Shown piece after piece: positions 2,587 through 34,812 of a stretch of 41,067 nt of DNA; the first letter of the stretch is position 1; each line of letters begins with the position of its first letter. The notes under the pieces were generated by a model. That model saw only the letters and a program-made list of their open reading frames with translations. It had not been told where the DNA came from and made no database searches. The stretch is from the IMG/VR virus record IMGVR_UViG_2541047898_000010. One strand, 5' to 3'. The stretch is from a virus (Duplodnaviria; Heunggongvirae; Uroviricota; Caudoviricetes). The position numbers and the translations under genes were made by a program.

Positions 2587-4053
2587 ATGAAAAGAAAACA
2601 ATATTTTTCTACAATACTGACATGCACAATGCTATTTGTTCTGCCTATAATAATCGCCAATGTTTACTATATAGATGATAATTATAGGTCTATAACTGGC
2701 GATGACGCGTGGCACATAGATGGCCGCCCTTTATCAGACTTATTAATGTACATCGTTAATGGGAATACTCATTTAACAGATACTTCCCCATTACCAACTT
2801 TCATTTCAATTATACTTTTATCAGTAAGTAGTTATTCATTCTCTAAAAGGTACATTGGTTTTAATCATGGTGTAATCCCATTTACTTTGATACCACTTTG
2901 TATTTTTGCCAGCCCATTTTTCATTGAGAATGTAGTTTATAAATTTGATGTGCTTCCAATGTGTGCATCTATTAGCTTATCTTATTTGTTTATAAATGTA
3001 AGTATAGCAAATAGATTTCTCAAGTTGCTGTGTCTATCTGTAATAGTCACATGCATATTATCTGCTTACCAAGCATCTATAAACTTTTTGCTATCACTAG
3101 TTCTATGTGAGTTCTTATCAAGATACAACAACAATGTAAAGAACTTATTTTCTTTTATTATTGAAACAATGGCGTCTCTTTGTATTGGTGCTTTTATTTA
3201 TTTAAAGATTATACTTCCTATTTTTCTTATAACACCTGAGTCCTCAGATCACCCAATGCTAGAGGCGCAAAATATTATTGGTGTTGCTTACAGCAATTCT
3301 CTGTATTACTTAAACTTAATATGGATATCAATACCTGAATCATGGCGATATATCTACTTGTTATTATTTGCTATGTCTATTATTTGCGCAATATGTATTG
3401 CAATAATCAAAAAGGAAAATGGAATTACTGGATTGATTCTATGCCTTATTGCTGGTCTATCGCCGATCATTTCCGTCTTGTGTTCATTTATAAGCCTATC
3501 AACCCTATCTTCGCCATTGCCATTCCCAAGAGTCATGATAGGATTCTCTGGTACATGCCTATTTATTGCAATGGTTATATTTGAGTTCACAAAATCTTTT
3601 AGGGCTAAGGTATTCTATATATTAGCAATACCAGTCTGGTTTTCTTTTGGTATGTACTATTCATATGGAAACGCTTTACGAGCAAGCAGCGATATTACTG
3701 ATGCTATATTTAACAATATAAAAGATGATGTATTTTCATTAACAAAGAAAGAAGACTCTGTAATATTATTCCACGGAGCAACACCAAAAAGCAAAGTGTT
3801 GTTAAACTCAATTAAGAATTACCCTATAATAGGTGGTTTGGTTCCAGATTACCTTACAAACTGGACTTTACCTTATACATATATGTCAAGAATAGGAATT
3901 TCCTATGTAAAAGATTATAGCGTCAATGCTGATGATATAATAAATAACAATAATTTTTGTTCTAATTCTGATAGAATAGAACGATATAATTATAATGTTC
4001 TATTTTTTGATGATATTTCAATAATAGATTTCAGTAAAGAACTTTGCAGGTAA
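2587..4053 (+). CDS. Serotype-specific O-antigen glucosyltransferase (Gtr type-specific, GtrC-like)
   Basis: 488 aa, strongly hydrophobic multi-pass protein, markedly AT-rich compared with neighbours, third gene of a gtrAB cassette. Confidence 0.7.
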   Translation: MKRKQYFSTILTCTMLFVLPIIIANVYYIDDNYRSITGDDAWHIDGRPLSDLLMYIVNGNTHLTDTSPLPTFISIILLSVSSYSFSKRYIGFNHGVIPFTLIPLCIFASPFFIENVVYKFDVLPMCASISLSYLFINVSIANRFLKLLCLSVIVTCILSAYQASINFLLSLVLCEFLSRYNNNVKNLFSFIIETMASLCIGAFIYLKIILPIFLITPESSDHPMLEAQNIIGVAYSNSLYYLNLIWISIPESWRYIYLLLFAMSIICAICIAIIKKENGITGLILCLIAGLSPIISVLCSFISLSTLSSPLPFPRVMIGFSGTCLFIAMVIFEFTKSFRAKVFYILAIPVWFSFGMYYSYGNALRASSDITDAIFNNIKDDVFSLTKKEDSVILFHGATPKSKVLLNSIKNYPIIGGLVPDYLTNWTLPYTYMSRIGISYVKDYSVNADDIINNNNFCSNSDRIERYNYNVLFFDDISIIDFSKELCR

Positions 4054-4055
4054 AA

Positions 4056-4085
4056 AAAGCCCTCTTTAGTGAGGGCTGTTTTTTC
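4056..4085. terminator. Bidirectional intrinsic terminator between convergent gtr cassette and tailspike gene
   Basis: A-run, stem agccctc (4058-4064) / gagggct (4071-4077), then T-run gtttttt. Confidence 0.6.
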
Positions 4086-5934
4086 ACTCAAATAAAGTTT
4101 CCATAATGTATGTGATGCTACCAGTAAATTTAGATGTGGTGCTAATGCTAGAGTCCTGGAGTGGGCTGGTTGCAGGAATTTGGTGATTGTAGAAGTCTAT
4201 AGATGTTGACCCTCTTTCTATAGCAATGGAACACATCCCCACACCAGGTTGTAGTCCTGTAGCAATGGATACAATTCCACTGGCGCGGTTTGACGAAGGG
4301 TAAGGTAAATCCCTGATTTTCATTGCTCCAGTCTGCCCGCTGAATCCATTTAATTCCAAAGAAAATTCGACTGTAACAAGGCCTCCGTCTTTCCTGAATT
4401 TTATATCCGCTGACGCACCTGAAATTCCAACCGTGCTCGTACCAAATGTTATTCTTGCCCCATCAAGAGAGCCTTTAGAGATGAATGGCTCAGGAACTAT
4501 GGACTCAGATGCACCTGTTGCACGATATAAATATTTGTTACCTGGGGTATTAACAATAACAGTAGATCCTGACGCCCATGGACCAGAGCCAATAACAGGC
4601 AACTCTCCACTCTCAAACAGACTGTTAGTAAACACCAAGTTGTTGCCAGGACCGTGTATAAACACGTCGTATTTATATGTTCCACCAGATCTAAAATTGT
4701 TAATTGTTATCCTGTTTTGTGTGCCGTTAATGGATATAAGTGGGCTTTGATCATTGGCGATAGGCAGACATCGGAAAGAATCTATGTTGATTGTGTTCTC
4801 ATTAAGGAATGCTAATGCAGAACCATAATCCAAAGTTTTAGCTCTTGCTTGTTCACAACCACAACCTAATAAATTGATATTAGAACACTTATCAAAAAAA
4901 TAAGCTGTACTTGTGGTTCCATCAGATGCGCATCCTATGAGATTAGAATAACTGACGTTTTCTAAACGAAAAGCCCCGGGAGTCGTATCACCATACTCGT
5001 CTGGTGAGGCGCACCAAACATTGGTATAGGTAGTAGATGTTCCACCATTCTGCCTTATCTGGCCCCATGTCGCGATGTTAGTTAGCGTTGTCAGCCAAAC
5101 ATCATTCATCAAAATAGCGGTCTTAGCATTCTTTACCCCTATCCGCTCAAGAGCATATGCTTGCCCTGCATTTATAGCCAGTCCACATTCTCCTCCAAGA
5201 TCATCAGCCTCTAGCGTAATATCTCTTAATGTCACCCTCTGTGGAAAAGTTTCATAAGATGGAGCCTCAGAATCAACATAAGCTACCGTATCAACAGTAA
5301 ACTCTGGTGCTGATGAGGATTGCCCAGGCTTTAATGTTACAGTTGCATTACCGGTTTTTTTAAATCTCTTTGTGGTTTGAATTTCTGTCCCAGATAGAAT
5401 GAACTGATAATCATGATCTCCATGGTAGGTTTTAAATGAGCTGAATTTAAATCCATCTATTGGGGTGTTCACGTTACCAATGATGTTAGGAAGTTTTTCT
5501 CCGAGAGTGTCACCCACATTGCTTTGGGTGCCGCTTTCTGGGTTTGTGTATCCAACCAGGTTTGCGCCAACTCCTGATCCTAACTCTTGTCTCAATTGGT
5601 CTGGATCATACTTCAGCACATTAGGGAAATAGAATTGCTGAGCACCATATGCATCATAAACAGCCATAGAATGGCCTTGCACGGTAACGAATTTGGCAAT
5701 CTGTCCGTTATATACCGGGTAACCAGCAGCGTTAATGATGATTGGTTGCGAAACAGGAACGTGAGAGCCGTCTTCGTTCTCCACATAAACCTGAATCTGG
5801 TTTTCAGTATTTACCGGATCAGTGTCAATTTTTCCGATATAAATCTTTCCATTAGCTACGGCTTTAAAAGAACGAGCCATAGTGAAGAGTTGCGAAGGCA
5901 TGCTTACTACAACATTGGCTGTAATGTCTGTCAT
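4084..5934 (-). CDS. Tailspike protein (P22/Sf6-type head-binding N-terminus, distinct receptor-binding domain)
   Basis: 616 aa; first ~110 aa ([11 protein letters not shown]...KIDTDPVN...VLKYDPDQ) match P22 tailspike N-terminal domain from memory; ATG at 5932-5934. Confidence 0.9.
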
Positions 5935-6066
5935 TTAATTTGCTCCAGATACAATGAATCGCCGCAGCGTGGCCACGGTTGGTATTTGTTGCATACCGAA
6001 ACGGTACGATTGTTGATTTGTACAGTAGGTTTTACGATGCCATTCCACCCATTTGGTGAGGCATTG
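5935..6066. promoter_or_regulatory. Divergent control region between tailspike and mnt with a perfect 10-bp palindrome CGTGGCCACG (5968-5977)
   Basis: Palindrome read directly; resembles in style the Mnt operator of P22; putative -35 TTGTTG / -10 TACGAT for mnt on plus strand. Confidence 0.4.
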
Positions 6067-6324
6067 ATGATGTACAGCAAATACGATGAGGCGCAGTTCC
6101 ACTTGAGGCTTACGCACGAGTTGCACGCCAAGATTAAACAGCGTGCAAAAATGAATAACAGGTCTATCAATTCCGAAATTGTGGCTACGATGGAAGAATC
6201 ACTCTCCAAACCACCACCTGTAAGCGGGTATCGTGATGAAGAAGAGAGGCTGGCCTCATTAATCTCGGAACGAGTAAAAGAAGTTGCGGCTGATATCCTT
6301 AGAAAAGAAAAAACCCGCGATTAA
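6067..6324 (+). CDS. mnt: Mnt-like ribbon-helix-helix repressor
   Basis: 85 aa from ATG at 6067 (C-terminal part of track ORF 5587..6324); FHLRL...NNRSINSEIV...PPVSGYRDEEERLA resembles P22 Mnt. Confidence 0.75.
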   Translation: MMYSKYDEAQFHLRLTHELHAKIKQRAKMNNRSINSEIVATMEESLSKPPPVSGYRDEEERLASLISERVKEVAADILRKEKTRD

Positions 6325-6333
6325 GCGGGTTTA
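6308..6333. terminator. Hairpin terminator between convergent mnt and antirepressor operon
   Basis: aaaaaa-cccgc-gattaa-gcggg-ttt; overlaps mnt stop codon. Confidence 0.5.
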
Positions 6334-6338
6334 GTTGG

Positions 6339-6560
6339 TTAGTTATCAAAAAGTCCGTACGTTTCTTCTTCTTCAGGTGTAAGGGGAAGAATCTCTACTC
6401 TATCTATAGATACCTTTTCAATGTACCCATGAGGTCTACTTAAAATTAAAGCTCTCTCATGCCACAGAACTCCAAGAATGTGATACCTTCCAGCATCACC
6501 TTTTACCCTAGCTCTTCCTTTGATTCTTGGCGGCATAATGCCATATTTTTTCTTTGCCAT
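6339..6560 (-). CDS. Hypothetical small protein, last gene of antirepressor operon
   Basis: 73 aa ORF; start overlaps stop of upstream gene at 6560. Confidence 0.45.
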   Translation of the reverse strand: MAKKKYGIMPPRIKGRARVKGDAGRYHILGVLWHERALILSRPHGYIEKVSIDRVEILPLTPEEEETYGLFDN

Positions 6561-7288
6561 TATGCAACATTACTCCCATGAATCAGGTGTTGTAGTGCTT
6601 TAACGCCTTCCGCATTGTAGCGGAATGCTTCCACCTGTTTGCTGGAATGCGCAGATTTATCCAGGAAGAACTTCCCGTACTGCTCAGTTTTGAGGTTGTT
6701 TGCGTTAGCAATGCGACCAATCTTGTTGGCCGTTACTCCAAGCTGCTCTGCAACCTCCCCTGCTGAGTAGTAATGCTCTTCTATTGCCGGAAGAGGTATT
6801 GCATTAAAACCAACGAGCGGGTTGATTATACTTGCTGCCGCTGTCTGCTTTGCCTCAGGCGCAAGATTTGGCATCAGATCGAACAGATTGGTAACAGCTT
6901 CAACCGTCATTTTCAATGTTCGCGCTTGACGATACTCAACAAGTCCACTCGCTGATTTACCGCTTTTAATGTGCGCTTCTTGCATGCTTTCAAGTTGGTC
7001 TACCAGTGAGCGGCGAACGGCTTTTGACTCGCGAGCGGCAACTCGCAATGCTTGCTTGATTGACATCTCAATGATAACCATCGAAGTTTTGTTCGCTTTT
7101 TGCACTACACTTTTTGTGTAGTGCTCTCCATCCAATTCATCTTCAATTTTCTCGATGAATTTGTTATTACGAACCTCCGGCTCACCGCACTGTCTACGAG
7201 CCTGATTTACCATCTCAAGCAGGCGCTGGCTGTCAATGGTTTTATCCGTGACAACGGATCCGATGTTTGCTACATTCTTAAAAGTCAT
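6560..7288 (-). CDS. Antirepressor-like protein (KilAC/ANT-type C-terminal region)
   Basis: Track ORF 6560..7375 begins with TTG; an internal ATG at 7286-7288 is preceded by AAGGAA; position downstream of arc-like gene. Confidence 0.55.
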   Translation of the reverse strand: MTFKNVANIGSVVTDKTIDSQRLLEMVNQARRQCGEPEVRNNKFIEKIEDELDGEHYTKSVVQKANKTSMVIIEMSIKQALRVAARESKAVRRSLVDQLESMQEAHIKSGKSASGLVEYRQARTLKMTVEAVTNLFDLMPNLAPEAKQTAAASIINPLVGFNAIPLPAIEEHYYSAGEVAEQLGVTANKIGRIANANNLKTEQYGKFFLDKSAHSSKQVEAFRYNAEGVKALQHLIHGSNVA

Positions 7289-7375
7289 TAGGCATTCCTT
7301 ATGTGGTAGTAAGGGTGTGACATAGGCCGCCAGCAGCACACTGGCGGTTTTCTTTTGCGCCGTCCTGTGCACCAA

Positions 7376-8002
7376 TCAATGAATCCATTCCTCGCCGCGC
7401 AGTTTTGCCAGCATTGGCTGAGCGTTCTTTACGACAAAATTGTTGGTATCAAGATTCTTCATTTCACGAAGAAGTGATTTCTTGGTTTCTTCTGACATGT
7501 AGCGAGTCTCATATGCAATATCGTAAATCCTTCCTGAAAGCTCAGAACCAATTTGCTTCATTCCTGGGTAGATGTGTTTGCACATTTGTTGACTCTTCTC
7601 CATCCACAATTGTAAGTAGCAGAGATTAACCAGCTCTTCGTCAGTGAACTGTTTTGCAATCGGTGAGCATTCTGCCTGCCGATCCAAAATATCCAGCACC
7701 CAGCGGCGGAACTCTTTGGCTACCGGAGTGCGAGCAAACATCGCGATTAGGTGGGCACCGCGTAGTGAGAAAACTCGCACTTTTTTGCGATAATTTCCTG
7801 AGGTACTCACTTCGAGTACCTGAGTCATCCCGGCGCTAAACTCATCGCTATACTTGTTATAAATCATTGTTACTGCACGGCTATTTGCATATTTAAGTGC
7901 AGATGCAATATTAGATGATGTAAACCAAACACCATGCATATCACGGGTGGGCACCAACTCAACTCCGTGGAAGTTGTAATCTGATTTTGCTACAATATTC
8001 AT
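7376..8002 (-). CDS. Bro-N domain antirepressor-like protein
   Basis: Track ORF 7376..8107 begins with TTG; ATG at 8000-8002 preceded by AGGAAA; N-terminus FHGVELVPTRDMHGVWFTSSNIASALKY resembles Bro-N / KilA-N fold. Confidence 0.6.
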   Translation of the reverse strand: MNIVAKSDYNFHGVELVPTRDMHGVWFTSSNIASALKYANSRAVTMIYNKYSDEFSAGMTQVLEVSTSGNYRKKVRVFSLRGAHLIAMFARTPVAKEFRRWVLDILDRQAECSPIAKQFTDEELVNLCYLQLWMEKSQQMCKHIYPGMKQIGSELSGRIYDIAYETRYMSEETKKSLLREMKNLDTNNFVVKNAQPMLAKLRGEEWIH

Positions 8003-8075
8003 GTTAGTTTCCTTGCATACGGTTACTGACATAGAGGCCCGGTTTGTGTTCGCGCACTGCCGGGCTTCACTATTT

Positions 8076-8249
8076 TTATTGGATGACAACATCGCCCTTT
8101 GCCTCAAGTTTCATTAATAACTCCATTCGATAAGCTATCTCTGCCTGAATTGACCTATGGCATCTTTTTGCTGATTCGCGGATATGTGAATCAACCTTTT
8201 CTGTAAAACGAACCTGACGCGGCTTGATGGAAGATATCTTTTCAGTCAT
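8076..8249 (-). CDS. arc: Arc-like ribbon-helix-helix regulator (not in the ORF track, 57 codons)
   Basis: Hand translation: MTEKISSIKPRQVRFTEKVDSHIRESAKRCHRSIQAEIAYRMELLMKLEAKGDVVIQ; ATG 8247-8249 preceded by AGGAG; pattern matches P22 Arc. Confidence 0.55.
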   Translation of the reverse strand: MTEKISSIKPRQVRFTEKVDSHIRESAKRCHRSIQAEIAYRMELLMKLEAKGDVVIQ

Positions 8250-8254
8250 TATGC

Positions 8255-8348
8255 ACTCCTGTTTTTGAAAAACTCATAATCTCACTTTTTGAGGTTTGAT
8301 TATTCACTCACACTCAGTATGAGTCAATGAATTTTTTATGGTGAACTA
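8255..8348. promoter_or_regulatory. Divergent promoter/operator region between arc-ant operon and the second repressor gene
   Basis: Minus-strand -35 TTGACT (plus 8322-8327) and -10 AATAAT (plus 8299-8304); inverted repeat ACTCA-gta-TGAGT (8313-8325); palindrome GTTTTTGAAAAAC (8261-8273). Confidence 0.4.
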
Positions 8349-8990
8349 ATGAATTTTGACGATCAATTCCCATCAAGAGTATCTCTGGCAAGACAGTCGA
8401 GGGGTATGACGCAGGCGCAGTTGTCAAAATTAGCTGGTGTTGTTCAACGTCAAATAGCTGCATACGAGGGTGGTGAGGCTAAACCACGGCTTCGTGTATT
8501 GCAGGCATTAGCCAACGCATTAGGCACTACGGCTGAGTGGTTAGCTCTGGGTGAAGGCCAGGGGCCGGGAACAAAAAACGTCATGCCTGACGTTCTGGTA
8601 AAGCAAATACCAATCCTCAAACTAGATGAAGTTATGCATTACCTAAACACAGGTGAACATTCATCGTCTAGATTTCATCCGGCAATATACAATGTTGGTG
8701 ACTCTGCATTTGCATTGACTATTGAAGGTGAAGCTATGACTACAAGTTCAGGTATTAGCTTTCCCAGAGGATCGGTTGTCACGTTCAGCCCTCTAGTAAA
8801 AGCTAAAAGCAAAGATTATGTAATAGCATCTTTGGATAAAGAGCAAATATTGAGCTTCAAACAGGTTTACATTGGTGAAATAGAGACAAACCTAGTATCC
8901 CTAAACCCAATGTATCCTAATATTCTTGTTAGAAATGAAGATGTTAGTATTTTGGCAACCGCAGTTTACCTTGAAATCCCGTTGCTTTGA
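8349..8990 (+). CDS. LexA/cI-like repressor (HTH_XRE + S24 peptidase-like domain), catalytic Ser apparently replaced by Ala
   Basis: 213 aa; N-terminal HTH (MTQAQLSKLAGVVQRQIAAYE); C-terminal region aligns with the 434 cI in this window (VEGDSMT vs IEGEAMT; FKKL vs FKQV). Confidence 0.8.
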   Translation: MNFDDQFPSRVSLARQSRGMTQAQLSKLAGVVQRQIAAYEGGEAKPRLRVLQALANALGTTAEWLALGEGQGPGTKNVMPDVLVKQIPILKLDEVMHYLNTGEHSSSRFHPAIYNVGDSAFALTIEGEAMTTSSGISFPRGSVVTFSPLVKAKSKDYVIASLDKEQILSFKQVYIGEIETNLVSLNPMYPNILVRNEDVSILATAVYLEIPLL

Positions 8991-30662: not shown

Positions 30663-32039
30663 TCATACGTCAGCCCCTTGTGCATATCGTCTGCCACGCG
30701 CAGCGGGTGCATTTGATGTTGTGCAAATCTGTCTGGCTTCATCCTGGTCACATGCAACAAAGTGTCCGTTGCAGAACCGCTGGTAAACCGTACCAAGCGA
30801 GCCAAAACGGTTTTTCGTCACGATGATTTCAGCAAATGGCGCGGCGCTACTGTTCTCGTCATATACCGCTTCCCGATAGAGCATGATGATTGAGTCTGCG
30901 TCCTGTTCAATGCTTCCTGAATCACGCAAATCTGCGTTTGTCGGGCGTTTGTTTGGTCGCTTCTCAACATCGCGCGAAAGCTGACTCAGGGAGATAACTG
31001 GCGTTTTCAGGTCTTTCGCCATCGCCTTAAGGCTTCCTGAGATGTGAGCAATTGCGAGGTCGTTGCGGTCTGCTTTCGGCTTCTCAATCAGGCCAAGATA
31101 ATCCGCCATGATGAGTGAGAGGTTTGGATTTTCCTGTTTGTGCCGCTCTGCGATTGAGCGAATTTCTTCTACCGATAACCGCGAGGCATCGACTACCCAT
31201 ACATCCAAATCTGCAAGCTGACTCATGCCGTTAGCAACACGCGCCCAGCCTTCGTCATCCATCGATGCAGGATTTCGCAGTACGCTAACCGACATCCTCC
31301 CGGCGTTGGCAATGCTTCGCTCTGCAATCTGCAATGCGCTCATTTCCATCGAGAAAATCAACACTCCGCGCCGGACGTCAGAACCAGGAATAACGCGGCT
31401 TGCCACGCCTTCGGCAATCTTCAGCGCCAGTTCGGTTTTCCCCATACCAGGACGAGCGGCGATTATCACCAGATCTTCCGCGTTCATCCCTCCGGTGATG
31501 GCATCAAGTTCTTCGATTCCGGTCTTCAGGGTATCGGACTCTTCTCCGTTCCTCAGACGCCTGTCAAGCGTGTCAGTGTAGTCAGTAATGATTTCCCCTA
31601 ACCGTACAGGTTTTACCTCGTCACGGGGCTTTCTGATGGCTGAAAGACGCTTTACAAGTTCATCCATCGCCTGACTCGATGCGTCGATGGTTCCGCTCTG
31701 AATTGGTTCACGCATTTCATCCATGATTTCCAGCACCAGACGGCGGTGATAGTTATCCGCGACCATTCCGGCATATCCCTTCAGGTTTGCGGCACTCGGG
31801 CAGTTTTTGCTGGTCATCAGGATTGACGTGAAATGCTCCTCTCCGCACGCCTCGGCAACCATCAGCGCGTCGATTAGGTTTCTGTTTCGCGCCTGCTTGC
31901 GGATAACCTCGAAGGCTTTCCGGTAGAGCGGAATTGAAAACGCTTCCGGCTCCAGCGTTGCCAGAACGTCGCTGGCGGTTGGTGTTAATCCACCAATCAG
32001 CAAGCCACCGATAACGCTCGCTTCGATATCCTGTCTCAT
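30663..32039 (-). CDS. Replicative DNA helicase (DnaB-like, P22 gene 12 type)
   Basis: 458 aa; Walker [13 protein letters not shown]; ATGA overlap with initiator gene. Confidence 0.85.
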
Positions 32040-32866
32040 GCAATCCCCCTGTCTGCAAACTTCCCTTCCCGTACTCCAGTTAACGAATCTTCCCTCAGCA
32101 GGTAATCAAAATCAGCTGTCCAGCCCGTGTCGTTGTCTCCGAAGTAAAACGGCTTGGCCTGATGCACAAACGCCCTGACATACGCTCTGAAACCGTCCAC
32201 GTTTGGCGTTTTCAGTTGCGGGATGATTTTCTTCAGGCGGCGTTTGCGTTTCTCGTTGACCGCAACAGCGTGTGGCAGTCTGTCACCGACTTCGGTGTTG
32301 TAGGCGTTCAGGAAGGATTCATAGTCGATTCGTTCTGCCTTGCGACGTTCAGGTTTAACCTGCCCATCGCCGCCCCCGTTAGGGGGTAAGGGGGTATTTG
32401 TATTTATTGTCTTTTGTATATTGTCTTTTGTGTTTGACTGATTCGGTAAATTGCTTTTTACCGATTTGGTGAAGGTTTGTTTTACCGAATTGGTAAATGT
32501 TTTACCGAATCCGTTAACTTTCGTTTTCCACTCGGAAATGTTTGTATTCATACCAACTTGACGCCCCACCTGAATGAGAACTCCCATTCTGATAAGCTCG
32601 TTTTTGGCGGTAGAGCATTTGGTTGGTGCCATGCCAGTGAGTTCAGCGAACTGTTCGTTTCCGATCCAATCTATTTTTTTGTTGTAACCGTATGTCTTGC
32701 GCCACACAGCCATAACAATCAGTAACTGATGTAGAGTAAGTCCAGAAAGCATGGCGGCTTCTAACAGTGTGTTTGCAGTCCGAGTGTAGCCATCTTCGAG
32801 TTCTGCCACGCGATGCTCCACGACCTCCAGTTGAGGCCTGTAATCAGCTAACTTAACGACGCCCAT
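32036..32866 (-). CDS. Replication initiator (lambda O / P22 gene 18 type) containing ori iterons
   Basis: 276 aa; N-terminal O-like domain; internal repetitive coding segment corresponds to DNA iterons; ATG 32864-32866 with AGGAG. Confidence 0.75.
32395..32520. repeat. Origin of replication: AT-rich tract plus iterons (TTTACCGAAT family, direct and inverted; ATTGTCTTTTGT x2)
   Basis: Repeats read directly: attgtcttttgt at 32406 and 32420; ttttaccgat/ttttaccgaat at about 32454, 32478, 32498; inverted copy at 32441. Confidence 0.6.

Positions 32867-33459: not shown

Positions 33460-34812
<1,353 letters not shown>

Follow-up and report, generated by a model that had tools for sequence, protein, structure and literature searches.

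The mnt homologue of this phage lies directly beside the tailspike gene, and this raises the questions of where in the shared control region its product might bind, and what it could control from there. The window, by which we mean the whole 41,067-nucleotide stretch of virus DNA that was analysed (IMG/VR record IMGVR_UViG_2541047898_000010), is a P22-like (Lederbergvirus) genome. Its tailspike gene, a homologue of P22 gene 9, occupies positions 4084-5934 on the minus strand (Pfam Head_binding, E=1.2e-66), and the mnt homologue occupies 6067-6324 on the plus strand, preceded by a ribosome binding site (GGTGAGG, 6055-6061) and coding for an 85-residue protein with a ribbon-helix-helix domain and a C-terminal oligomerisation region. 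The two genes are divergent and separated by a 132-bp spacer (5935-6066). On its other side mnt is convergent with a minus-strand arc-like/antirepressor operon, the antirepressor cassette (6339-8249), which is composed of a gene for a 73-aa protein (6339-6560), a KilA-like gene (6560-7288), a Bro-N/P22_AR_C antirepressor gene (7376-8002), and an arc-like ribbon-helix-helix gene (8076-8249). A plus-strand gene coding for a repressor with helix-turn-helix and Peptidase_S24 domains (HTH-S24; 8349-8990) is divergent from this operon, and is followed by sieA (9051-9545). A bidirectional intrinsic terminator at 6311-6332 (AAACCCGC-ttaatc-GCGGGTTT, followed by a T run) is common to mnt and the convergent ant operon, and overlaps the mnt stop codon. 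Comparison of positions 5500-8700 with Rfam gave zero families above threshold and a single sub-threshold match, to SymR at 8000-8071.

An earlier sequence-only reading of this DNA described the same layout, and the open reading frame calls and the sequence agree with it as to the position of mnt, the 132-bp spacer, the presence of a palindrome at 5968-5977, and a gene order other than that of P22; it was also right that mnt stands apart from the arc/ant operon, which converges on it from the other side. The same reading went on to propose a rearranged immI region with the palindrome as a likeness of the Mnt operator, in which Mnt regulates its own gene and/or an early promoter that reads into the tailspike gene, and it is here that our analysis departs from it. 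We consider it probable that the spacer is a mosaic junction between two modules, a gene-9 leader in which a palindrome has arisen by chance, and a remnant of immI that comprises Omnt, Pmnt and mnt, with the tailspike expressed from the late transcript.

The protein itself is clearly related to Mnt. The product of the open reading frame matches Pfam family Arc (PF03869) with E=3.8e-14 and 52.7 bits against a cutoff of 20.4, which identifies the N-terminal ribbon-helix-helix domain, and it is 45% identical to P22 Mnt over residues 7-79 (tblastn). The best match among solved structures is the Mnt repressor (1MNT, E=1.6e-15), with residues 7-79 of the query aligned to residues 3-75 of the chain, such that the match spans both the DNA-binding portion and the C-terminal region, the latter being the part that separates Mnt from Arc.

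When the spacer is aligned with P22 Omnt/Pant, the operator is placed at 5992-6008 and not at the palindrome. Positions 5992-6066 are homologous to the annotated Omnt/Pmnt region of P22, and global alignments of 5990-6069 with the control regions of P22, ST64T, 720R6 and Brookers score above all of 1000 shuffles in each case. The P22 operator, AGGTCCACCGTGGACCT, aligns with the 17-bp sequence CATACCGAAACGGTACG (5992-6008), a positional homologue of P22 Omnt with an inverted-repeat core (TACCG-AAA-CGGTA, 5994-6006). The centre of this candidate operator is 10 bp from the -35 hexamer of Pmnt, a spacing identical to that in P22, and it is approximately 25-27 bp nearer to mnt and Pmnt than the palindrome is. 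The putative Pmnt consists of TTGTTG (6010-6015) and TACGAT (6033-6038) on the plus strand, separated by 17 bp, and aligns with P22 Pmnt (TTGAGA-17-TATCAT); a -10 of the form TAnnAT is kept in all of the alleles compared. Only seven of its 12 positions match the consensus, which explains why it is missing from the list of promoters produced by our scan, and it is from the alignment alone that we infer it to be a promoter here.

A second line of evidence comes from co-variation between the operator half-site and the beta-strand residues of Mnt, with the half-site at a fixed position relative to mnt. In P22, the Mnt strand reads HFNFR and the half-site GGTCCAC; in ST64T and 720R6 these are QFNLR and AGACCAC; and in the window, as in JEP4, VSe13 and Sf101, they are QFHLR and ATACCGA. 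Together with the homology to the P22 control region, this leads us to infer that Mnt binds at 5992-6008. A plausible role for such binding is autoregulation of mnt, which would thus be exerted through a site other than the palindrome.

Sequence conservation in relatives follows the same pattern. We retrieved 119 IMG/VR loci using a 19-nt pattern inside the Pmnt region, a procedure that inflates the apparent conservation there because the pattern lies within the region being compared, and that misses any canonical mnt-arc-ant arrangement with an intact Pant -35. The columns of the operator and promoter show almost no variation across 31 unique window-type spacers, and the operator 15-mer reads ATACCGAAA(C/T)GGTAC in 24 with single changes in the other seven; the candidate operator is thus conserved in relatives, except for the C/T alternation at position 6002. 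The window contains one full copy of the operator (5993-6007). Among the matches listed for the 15-mer ATACCGAAAYGGTAC in genome contigs, nearly all are chance occurrences in unrelated phyla. In four loci that contain ant, TACCGAGATGGTA also matches at some 1.1 kb upstream of gene 9, and we set these matches aside as coding sequence of an arc-like gene (NTEMV) and not operators. The iterons of the replication origin resemble the operator core as well, and about one match with at most one mismatch is expected by chance per 41 kb.

The proposal of an early promoter reading into the tailspike gene finds little in the spacer to sustain it. A consensus scan lists no minus-strand sigma-70-like promoter in the spacer, and the hexamers that align with the strong leftward promoter of P22, Pant (TTGACA-17-TATATT), have decayed to ATGGCA-17-CAAATC in the window. 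The corresponding sequences are TCGGCA-17-TATATC in ST64T and TCGGCA-17-TGCATC in 720R6, and in none of the three are the A at position 2 and the T at position 6 of the -10 retained together. A plus-strand site, CTGTCA-16-TACAAT (5928-5955), would put the operator downstream of its start site, although we judge this to be a chance match, since TACAAT is peculiar to the window, with TACAAG in most relatives, and since there is overlap with the start codon and ribosome binding site of the tailspike gene. With the Pant hexamers decayed, the tailspike is most likely expressed from the late-operon transcript only, the transcript from which it is expressed in P22 as well (PMC2629481). Nonetheless, there may be a weak or non-canonical leftward promoter into the tailspike gene.

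These considerations bear directly on the alternative that survives best, in which Mnt bound at 5992-6008 would gate transcription entering the tailspike gene, either from a weak remnant of Pant or from read-through polymerases, and would so tune or silence the tailspike in lysogens or during early infection. In support of this, all three types of mnt|9 junction that we read have the operator 50-70 nt upstream of the start codon of the tailspike gene, and the Mnt-operator pair is strongly conserved even though 69 of the 84 loci with enough flanking sequence have no homologue of the antirepressor cassette of the window. In P22, moreover, the level of tailspike is believed to respond to Pant transcripts and to the ant moron, and Mnt and Arc may take part in these effects (PMC2629481). 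The state of the Pant-aligned hexamers and the negative minus-strand scan, however, count against such gating. A bound repressor is also not expected to stop antiterminated late transcription. We therefore regard gating of the tailspike as doubtful. The broader proposition, that the orphan Mnt-operator pair is a self-contained module maintained by selection, either to gate transcription into the tailspike through 5992-6008 or for a different role that does not involve a linked antirepressor, is also unlikely, if slightly less so.

Selection on mnt nevertheless has to be accounted for, and our preferred reading of two modules with late expression of the tailspike includes it. In the lineage of the window and Sf101, the mnt open reading frame is uninterrupted in 112 of the 116 loci that could be evaluated, and pN/pS over its first 45 codons is 0.085 at a pS of 0.40. 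Divergence in the non-coding stretch between the operator and the start codon is 0.083 per site compared with 0.232 at the adjacent third codon positions, a comparison in which 19 of the 78 non-coding columns are set by the retrieval pattern, and the non-coding value becomes approximately 0.11 when those columns are left out; the operator and promoter are thus some 2-3 times better conserved than the neighbouring third codon positions. In all 84 loci with enough flank, mnt adjoins the tailspike gene. This pattern shows strong purifying selection, as judged from sequence comparison, on the Mnt protein, its operator and its promoter in a lineage whose members mostly have no ant cassette. It is very improbable, then, that mnt is a functionless and decaying relic of a lost immI region. 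Such a reading could draw on the loss of arc and ant from the side of mnt that faces the operator, on the decay of Pant, and on the fact that the possibility has been raised for the mnt homologue of phage L (PMC8022706), but it is contradicted by the intact reading frames, by the low pN/pS, by the conserved stretch from operator to start codon, and by the co-variation of the operator dyad with the recognition residues.

The other part of the spacer, nearest the tailspike gene, has a different history. Positions 5935-5978 form a conserved gene-9 leader on the minus strand, with a Shine-Dalgarno sequence (GGAG, 5943-5946), and an identical or near-identical sequence is present 5' of gene 9 in P22, CUS-3 and many relatives. 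To follow it we used a sample of 80 IMG/VR loci, chosen as those with a tailspike N-terminal domain closest to that of the window. The N-terminal 330 nt of the tailspike gene are 86-95% identical to these relatives, and identity over nt 330-900 is about 25-36% in a position-by-position comparison of unaligned sequences, such that conservation of the tailspike appears limited to the N-terminal head-binding domain. In P22, CUS-3, ST64T, 720R6 and all 80 of the IMG/VR loci, the leader immediately precedes the tailspike start codon. It aligns with the spacer between the P22 ant terminator and gene 9, catttaatttgctccagatgcaaggaattgccgcagcatggctacggtga, and not with the P22 mnt-arc spacer. Immediately upstream of the leader the relatives split, with the ant terminator in 36 of the 80 loci, an operator of the window/Sf101 type in 24, an operator of the ST64T type in 10, and other sequence in the remaining 10. 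Where the leader module meets the mnt control module (5979-5991), the spacer has its least conserved columns, and the alignments place the mosaic breakpoint at about these positions.

Within the leader, the tailspike-sense RNA can form a hairpin with a 7-bp stem and a 3-nt loop (CCGUGGC-CAC-GCUGCGG, 5962-5978), for which the conserved core in relatives is CCGUAGC-CAU-GCUGCGG. In a set of 25 distinct leaders, standard pairs account for 97.1% of the stem cells on the tailspike-sense strand, with a mean hairpin energy of -9.6 kcal/mol, and for 81% on the opposite strand, with a mean of -7.0 kcal/mol. The predicted minimum free energy fold of the leader is built around this hairpin, although the z-score for the whole leader is only -1.3. 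The changes in the stem are mostly one-sided and preserve pairing through G-U, one change is two-sided and compensatory, and values as high as those observed arise in 30 of 500 shuffles. It is plausible, with weak support from these comparisons, that the hairpin is an RNA element of the tailspike leader.

The perfect 10-bp palindrome CGTGGCCACG (5968-5977), which occurs once in the window, falls within this hairpin. It is a variant of the leader consensus CATGGCTACG that differs by two SNPs, one in the stem, where an A-U pair becomes G-U with pairing kept, and the other in the loop. Palindromes of this kind are not rare; the window has 31 perfect 10-bp palindromes in total, 0.09 are expected in the spacer, and 11% of spacer shuffles hold one, so that its presence is not beyond chance expectation (probability ~0.1). 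A repeat search with a seed of 6 reported neither this dyad nor that of the candidate operator, as the arms are only 5 nt long, and the dyads were instead counted by script. The likeness of the palindrome to the P22 operator, AGGTCCACGGTGGACCT, consists of a common CCACGGT heptamer, and by eye there is agreement at 10 of 17 positions.

The distribution of the palindrome is also not that of a site used by Mnt. At its position, the 31 unique window-type spacers have CATGGCTACG in 19 cases, CAGAGCTGCG in five and CGTGGCTACG in three, and CGTGGCCACG only in the window itself. The exact palindrome is found at six other loci among the 80 sampled relatives, all with the ant terminator upstream of the leader and without an adjacent mnt; it is absent from all 24 of the loci in that sample that have a window/Sf101-type operator beside the tailspike, and was not found in any other mnt-adjacent relative sampled. 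Overall, it is present in seven of the 102 leader occurrences counted, with six of the seven in the ant-terminator context, and in five of those six the leader allele is exactly that of the window over the 47 nt before the start codon. Because the six other carriers are all of the ant-terminator type, we conclude that the palindrome goes with the tailspike leader rather than with mnt, and we read it as the chance outcome of two substitutions in the leader hairpin, with no link to Mnt. It lies in an element that relatives conserve irrespective of mnt, which is an outcome that the sequence-only reading had itself named in advance as counting against its proposal.

That the palindrome nonetheless serves Mnt as the operator in a rearranged immI, controlling a promoter into the tailspike gene, is very improbable and the least probable of the readings considered, since a perfect palindrome inside the mnt-tailspike spacer and a heptamer in common with the P22 operator are outweighed by the variants seen at this position in relatives, by the carriage of the leader downstream of ant in P22 and CUS-3, by a centre some 27 bp further from Pmnt than the P22 operator position, by the difference in recognition residues between the Mnt of the window and that of P22, by the ease with which such a dyad arises, and by the failure of the scan to find a minus-strand promoter.

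The remaining element of the locus, the antirepressor cassette, appears to be a separate insertion with its own control. The ant control region and the HTH-S24 gene together span 8250-8990, with the gene on the plus strand, and a promoter-like sequence on the minus strand (TTGACT-17-AATAAT, 8327->8299) is overlapped by a palindrome of its own, ACTCAGTATGAGT (8312-8324). The HTH-S24 protein is 28% identical to the immC repressor encoded at 33779-34411. We found nothing resembling the Mnt operator in the ant control region (8250-8348), which is near-identical to that of JEP4 and differs from it at two adjacent positions. A divergent HTH-S24 gene, a separate palindrome, and no copy of the Mnt operator nearby are consistent with ant being under the control of a repressor other than Mnt, in accord with what the earlier reading had supposed.

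The arrangement of mnt beside the tailspike gene is common and was already described in 2008. The interval between genes 16 and 9 has been named the "ant moron", with ten types in sixteen genomes, and those of ST64T, ST104 and Para1 contain mnt and one unknown gene only (Villafane et al. 2008, PMC2629481). We find the layout in 34 of the 80 sampled relatives, and also in phages JEP4, VSe13, Sf101, IME10, ST64T, L, vB_EcoP-720R6, and Proteus phage Brookers. The full 571-bp segment is present in 58 complete E. coli genomes (at least 80% coverage), with 96.0-98.4% identity among the 40 matches listed, and is annotated in E. coli as "Arc family DNA-binding protein | phage tailspike protein".

The relationship to the immI region of P22 (mnt/Omnt/Pmnt-Pant/arc/ant/sar) is one of shared parts in a different order. 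The window has in common with P22 the full-length homology of Mnt, a 17-bp dyad operator, the distance to a weak Pmnt, and the tailspike leader, as well as SieA of the same moron, at 93% identity. In P22, however, the order is mnt <- -> arc, ant, 9, whereas in the window it is the tailspike, and not arc-ant, that lies on the operator side, and the ant cassette, which has its own HTH-S24 repressor, converges on mnt from the opposite side. The operators differ as well (TACCG-N3-CGGTA compared with GTCCAC-N-GTGGAC in P22), as do the recognition residues, which are Q/H/R here and H/N/R in P22. The hallmark of the P22 system, an operator that overlaps the start of a strong divergent Pant for arc-ant, is not seen in the window.

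Phages ST64T, ST104 and L are closer in layout, with mnt divergent from and adjoining the tailspike gene, an operator that abuts the leader, and no arc or ant on that side. We confirmed this for ST64T, in which mnt adjoins gene 9 divergently and the operator abuts the same leader, although its Mnt allele is 44% identical, its operator reads AAGACCACGGTGGTCTT, and its moron has neither sieA nor an antirepressor cassette, both of which are present in the window. JEP4 (MT740315) shares the organization of the window, with the spacer, mnt (annotated 'regulatory protein mnt'), and the genes for the 73-aa protein, the KilA-like protein, the antirepressor, the arc-like protein and a C2-like repressor in the same order, and with 97.6% identity over 5922-6600; it has CATGGCTACG at the position of the palindrome, however, and a replacement of the tailspike module begins 13 nt into gene 9. 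The prophage of E. coli AH19B041 likewise has the antirepressor cassette, which is annotated there too, but a truncated second mnt-like gene replaces the C2-like repressor. The leader is also shared with CUS-3, in which it is annotated 'bsq1; boundary sequence', and with the P22 t_ant-gene 9 spacer; the palindrome position reads GAAGCATGGCTACGGTGA in the former and GCAGCATGGCTACGGTGA in the latter, non-palindromic in both, and in both the leader is preceded by the ant terminator rather than by a Mnt operator. Two further comparators were set aside: the mnt genes of CUS-3 are different alleles (30% and 45% identity) and do not supply the cognate operator, and in Klebsiella phage phiKp_30 the similarity is confined to the 3' half of mnt and the context is unrelated.

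Our preferred account of the spacer as a junction of a gene-9 leader with an immI remnant can be set out as a working mechanism. The first module (5935-5978) is the 5' leader of the tailspike, contributing the ribosome binding site and the small hairpin on the tailspike-sense RNA. The second (5992-6324) would be what remains of the immI control region after loss of arc-ant, namely the operator, a weak Pmnt, mnt and the terminator. By homology with P22, the 17-bp dyad CATACCGAAACGGTACG, immediately 5' of the Pmnt -35, is predicted to be the binding site of Mnt tetramers; the counterpart site in P22 blocks the strong leftward Pant, a promoter whose hexamers have decayed here. The late-operon transcript would read through the bidirectional terminator, antisense through mnt, and into the tailspike gene, and the antirepressor cassette would be governed by its own divergent HTH-S24 repressor and the arc-like protein. 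Mnt would be left with control of its own level and, possibly, with an action in trans on incoming relatives that have the same operator. This second role is a conjecture, as we found no phage with an operator of this type in front of an ant gene among the relatives sampled.

The value of these results is mainly corrective, in that the palindrome is not to be pursued as an operator and CATACCGAAACGGTACG (5992-6008) is the site for tests of Mnt binding. Many P22-like phages keep mnt in the absence of arc-ant, and the question of what it does in such a setting has been posed for phage L, in which an mnt without arc-ant adjoins gene 9 and "could have acquired another function or be a remnant" (Zaworski et al. 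2021, PMC8022706). Since mnt is under selection together with its operator, a remnant is unlikely in the lineage of the window. The role of Mnt, if settled, would shed light on the reuse to which secondary immunity modules are put once their antirepressor has been lost.

The ant cassette of the window (an arc-like RHH gene at 8076-8249, the antirepressor gene at 7376-8002 and further genes down to 6339, all on the minus strand) faces a second gene for an HTH and Peptidase_S24 repressor of 213 aa, which lies within 8250-8990 and is divergent from the arc-like/antirepressor operon. The protein is 28% identical to the immC repressor (33779-34411). A palindrome, ACTCAGTATGAGT (8312-8324), overlaps the -35 element of a promoter-like site reading from 8327 to 8299, and this arrangement, together with the divergent S24 repressor gene, suggests that the protein may be an SOS-cleavable repressor dedicated to ant. 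Phage JEP4 has nearly the same ant-cassette control region, and the two part only at a pair of neighbouring positions.

A plus-strand stem-loop (8033-8075; GGCCCGG and CCGGGC separated by 17 nt and followed by a T-rich run) falls in the spacer that separates ant from the arc-like gene. It is antisense to the ant ribosome-binding site, and the equivalent position in P22 is occupied by the sar antisense RNA. A search of 5500-8700 against Rfam gave SymR as its sole result, at 8000-8071 with a sub-threshold 21.8 bits (E=0.57).

Four TTACCGAATTGGTAAA-like repeats, spaced about 20-24 bp apart, lie at 32436-32515 within the O-like replication gene (32036-32866, minus strand); these are presumably the iterons of the origin. 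The core that they share, TACCGAATTGGTA, is two changes away from the core of the Mnt operator and one change away from the Sf101-type operator. The likeness is probably a coincidence, since about one such match would be expected by chance.

At the other side of the tailspike gene (gene 9), a GtrII-family glucosyltransferase gene (2587-4053, plus strand; Pfam Glucos_trans_II, E=6.6e-24) is convergent with it; this is the O-antigen conversion module that is usual downstream of gene 9. Of a P22-type tailspike gene, JEP4 (L001 3822-4012) retains the leader and the opening 13 nt, but its annotated tailspike begins 190 bp further on, past an AT-rich segment; the JEP4 recombination joint lies at the extreme start of gene 9. 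P22 itself, in the stretch from the ant terminator to gene 9 (L005 2590-2720), has two direct copies of GC(A/G)TGGCTACGGTGAATTTT flanking a segment of about 105 bp that includes a GACCTACA/TGTAGGTC hairpin. In one IMG/VR relative the junction with its mnt operator falls at the distal copy. This would fit a role of the motif as a recombination boundary.

An ant-containing relative (L157 225-275) has a different perfect 17-bp dyad, GGTATAACGGTTATACC, ahead of its arc-like gene; this is another operator type within the same moron. In a close relative, the E. coli AH19B041 prophage (L130 8524-8670), a second mnt-like gene, truncated, takes the place divergent from arc-ant where the window has the C2-like repressor (8349-8990), and a 21-bp dyad, ATGACATCA-CCA-TGATGTCAT, lies upstream of it. 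The regulator of the ant cassette is evidently exchangeable.
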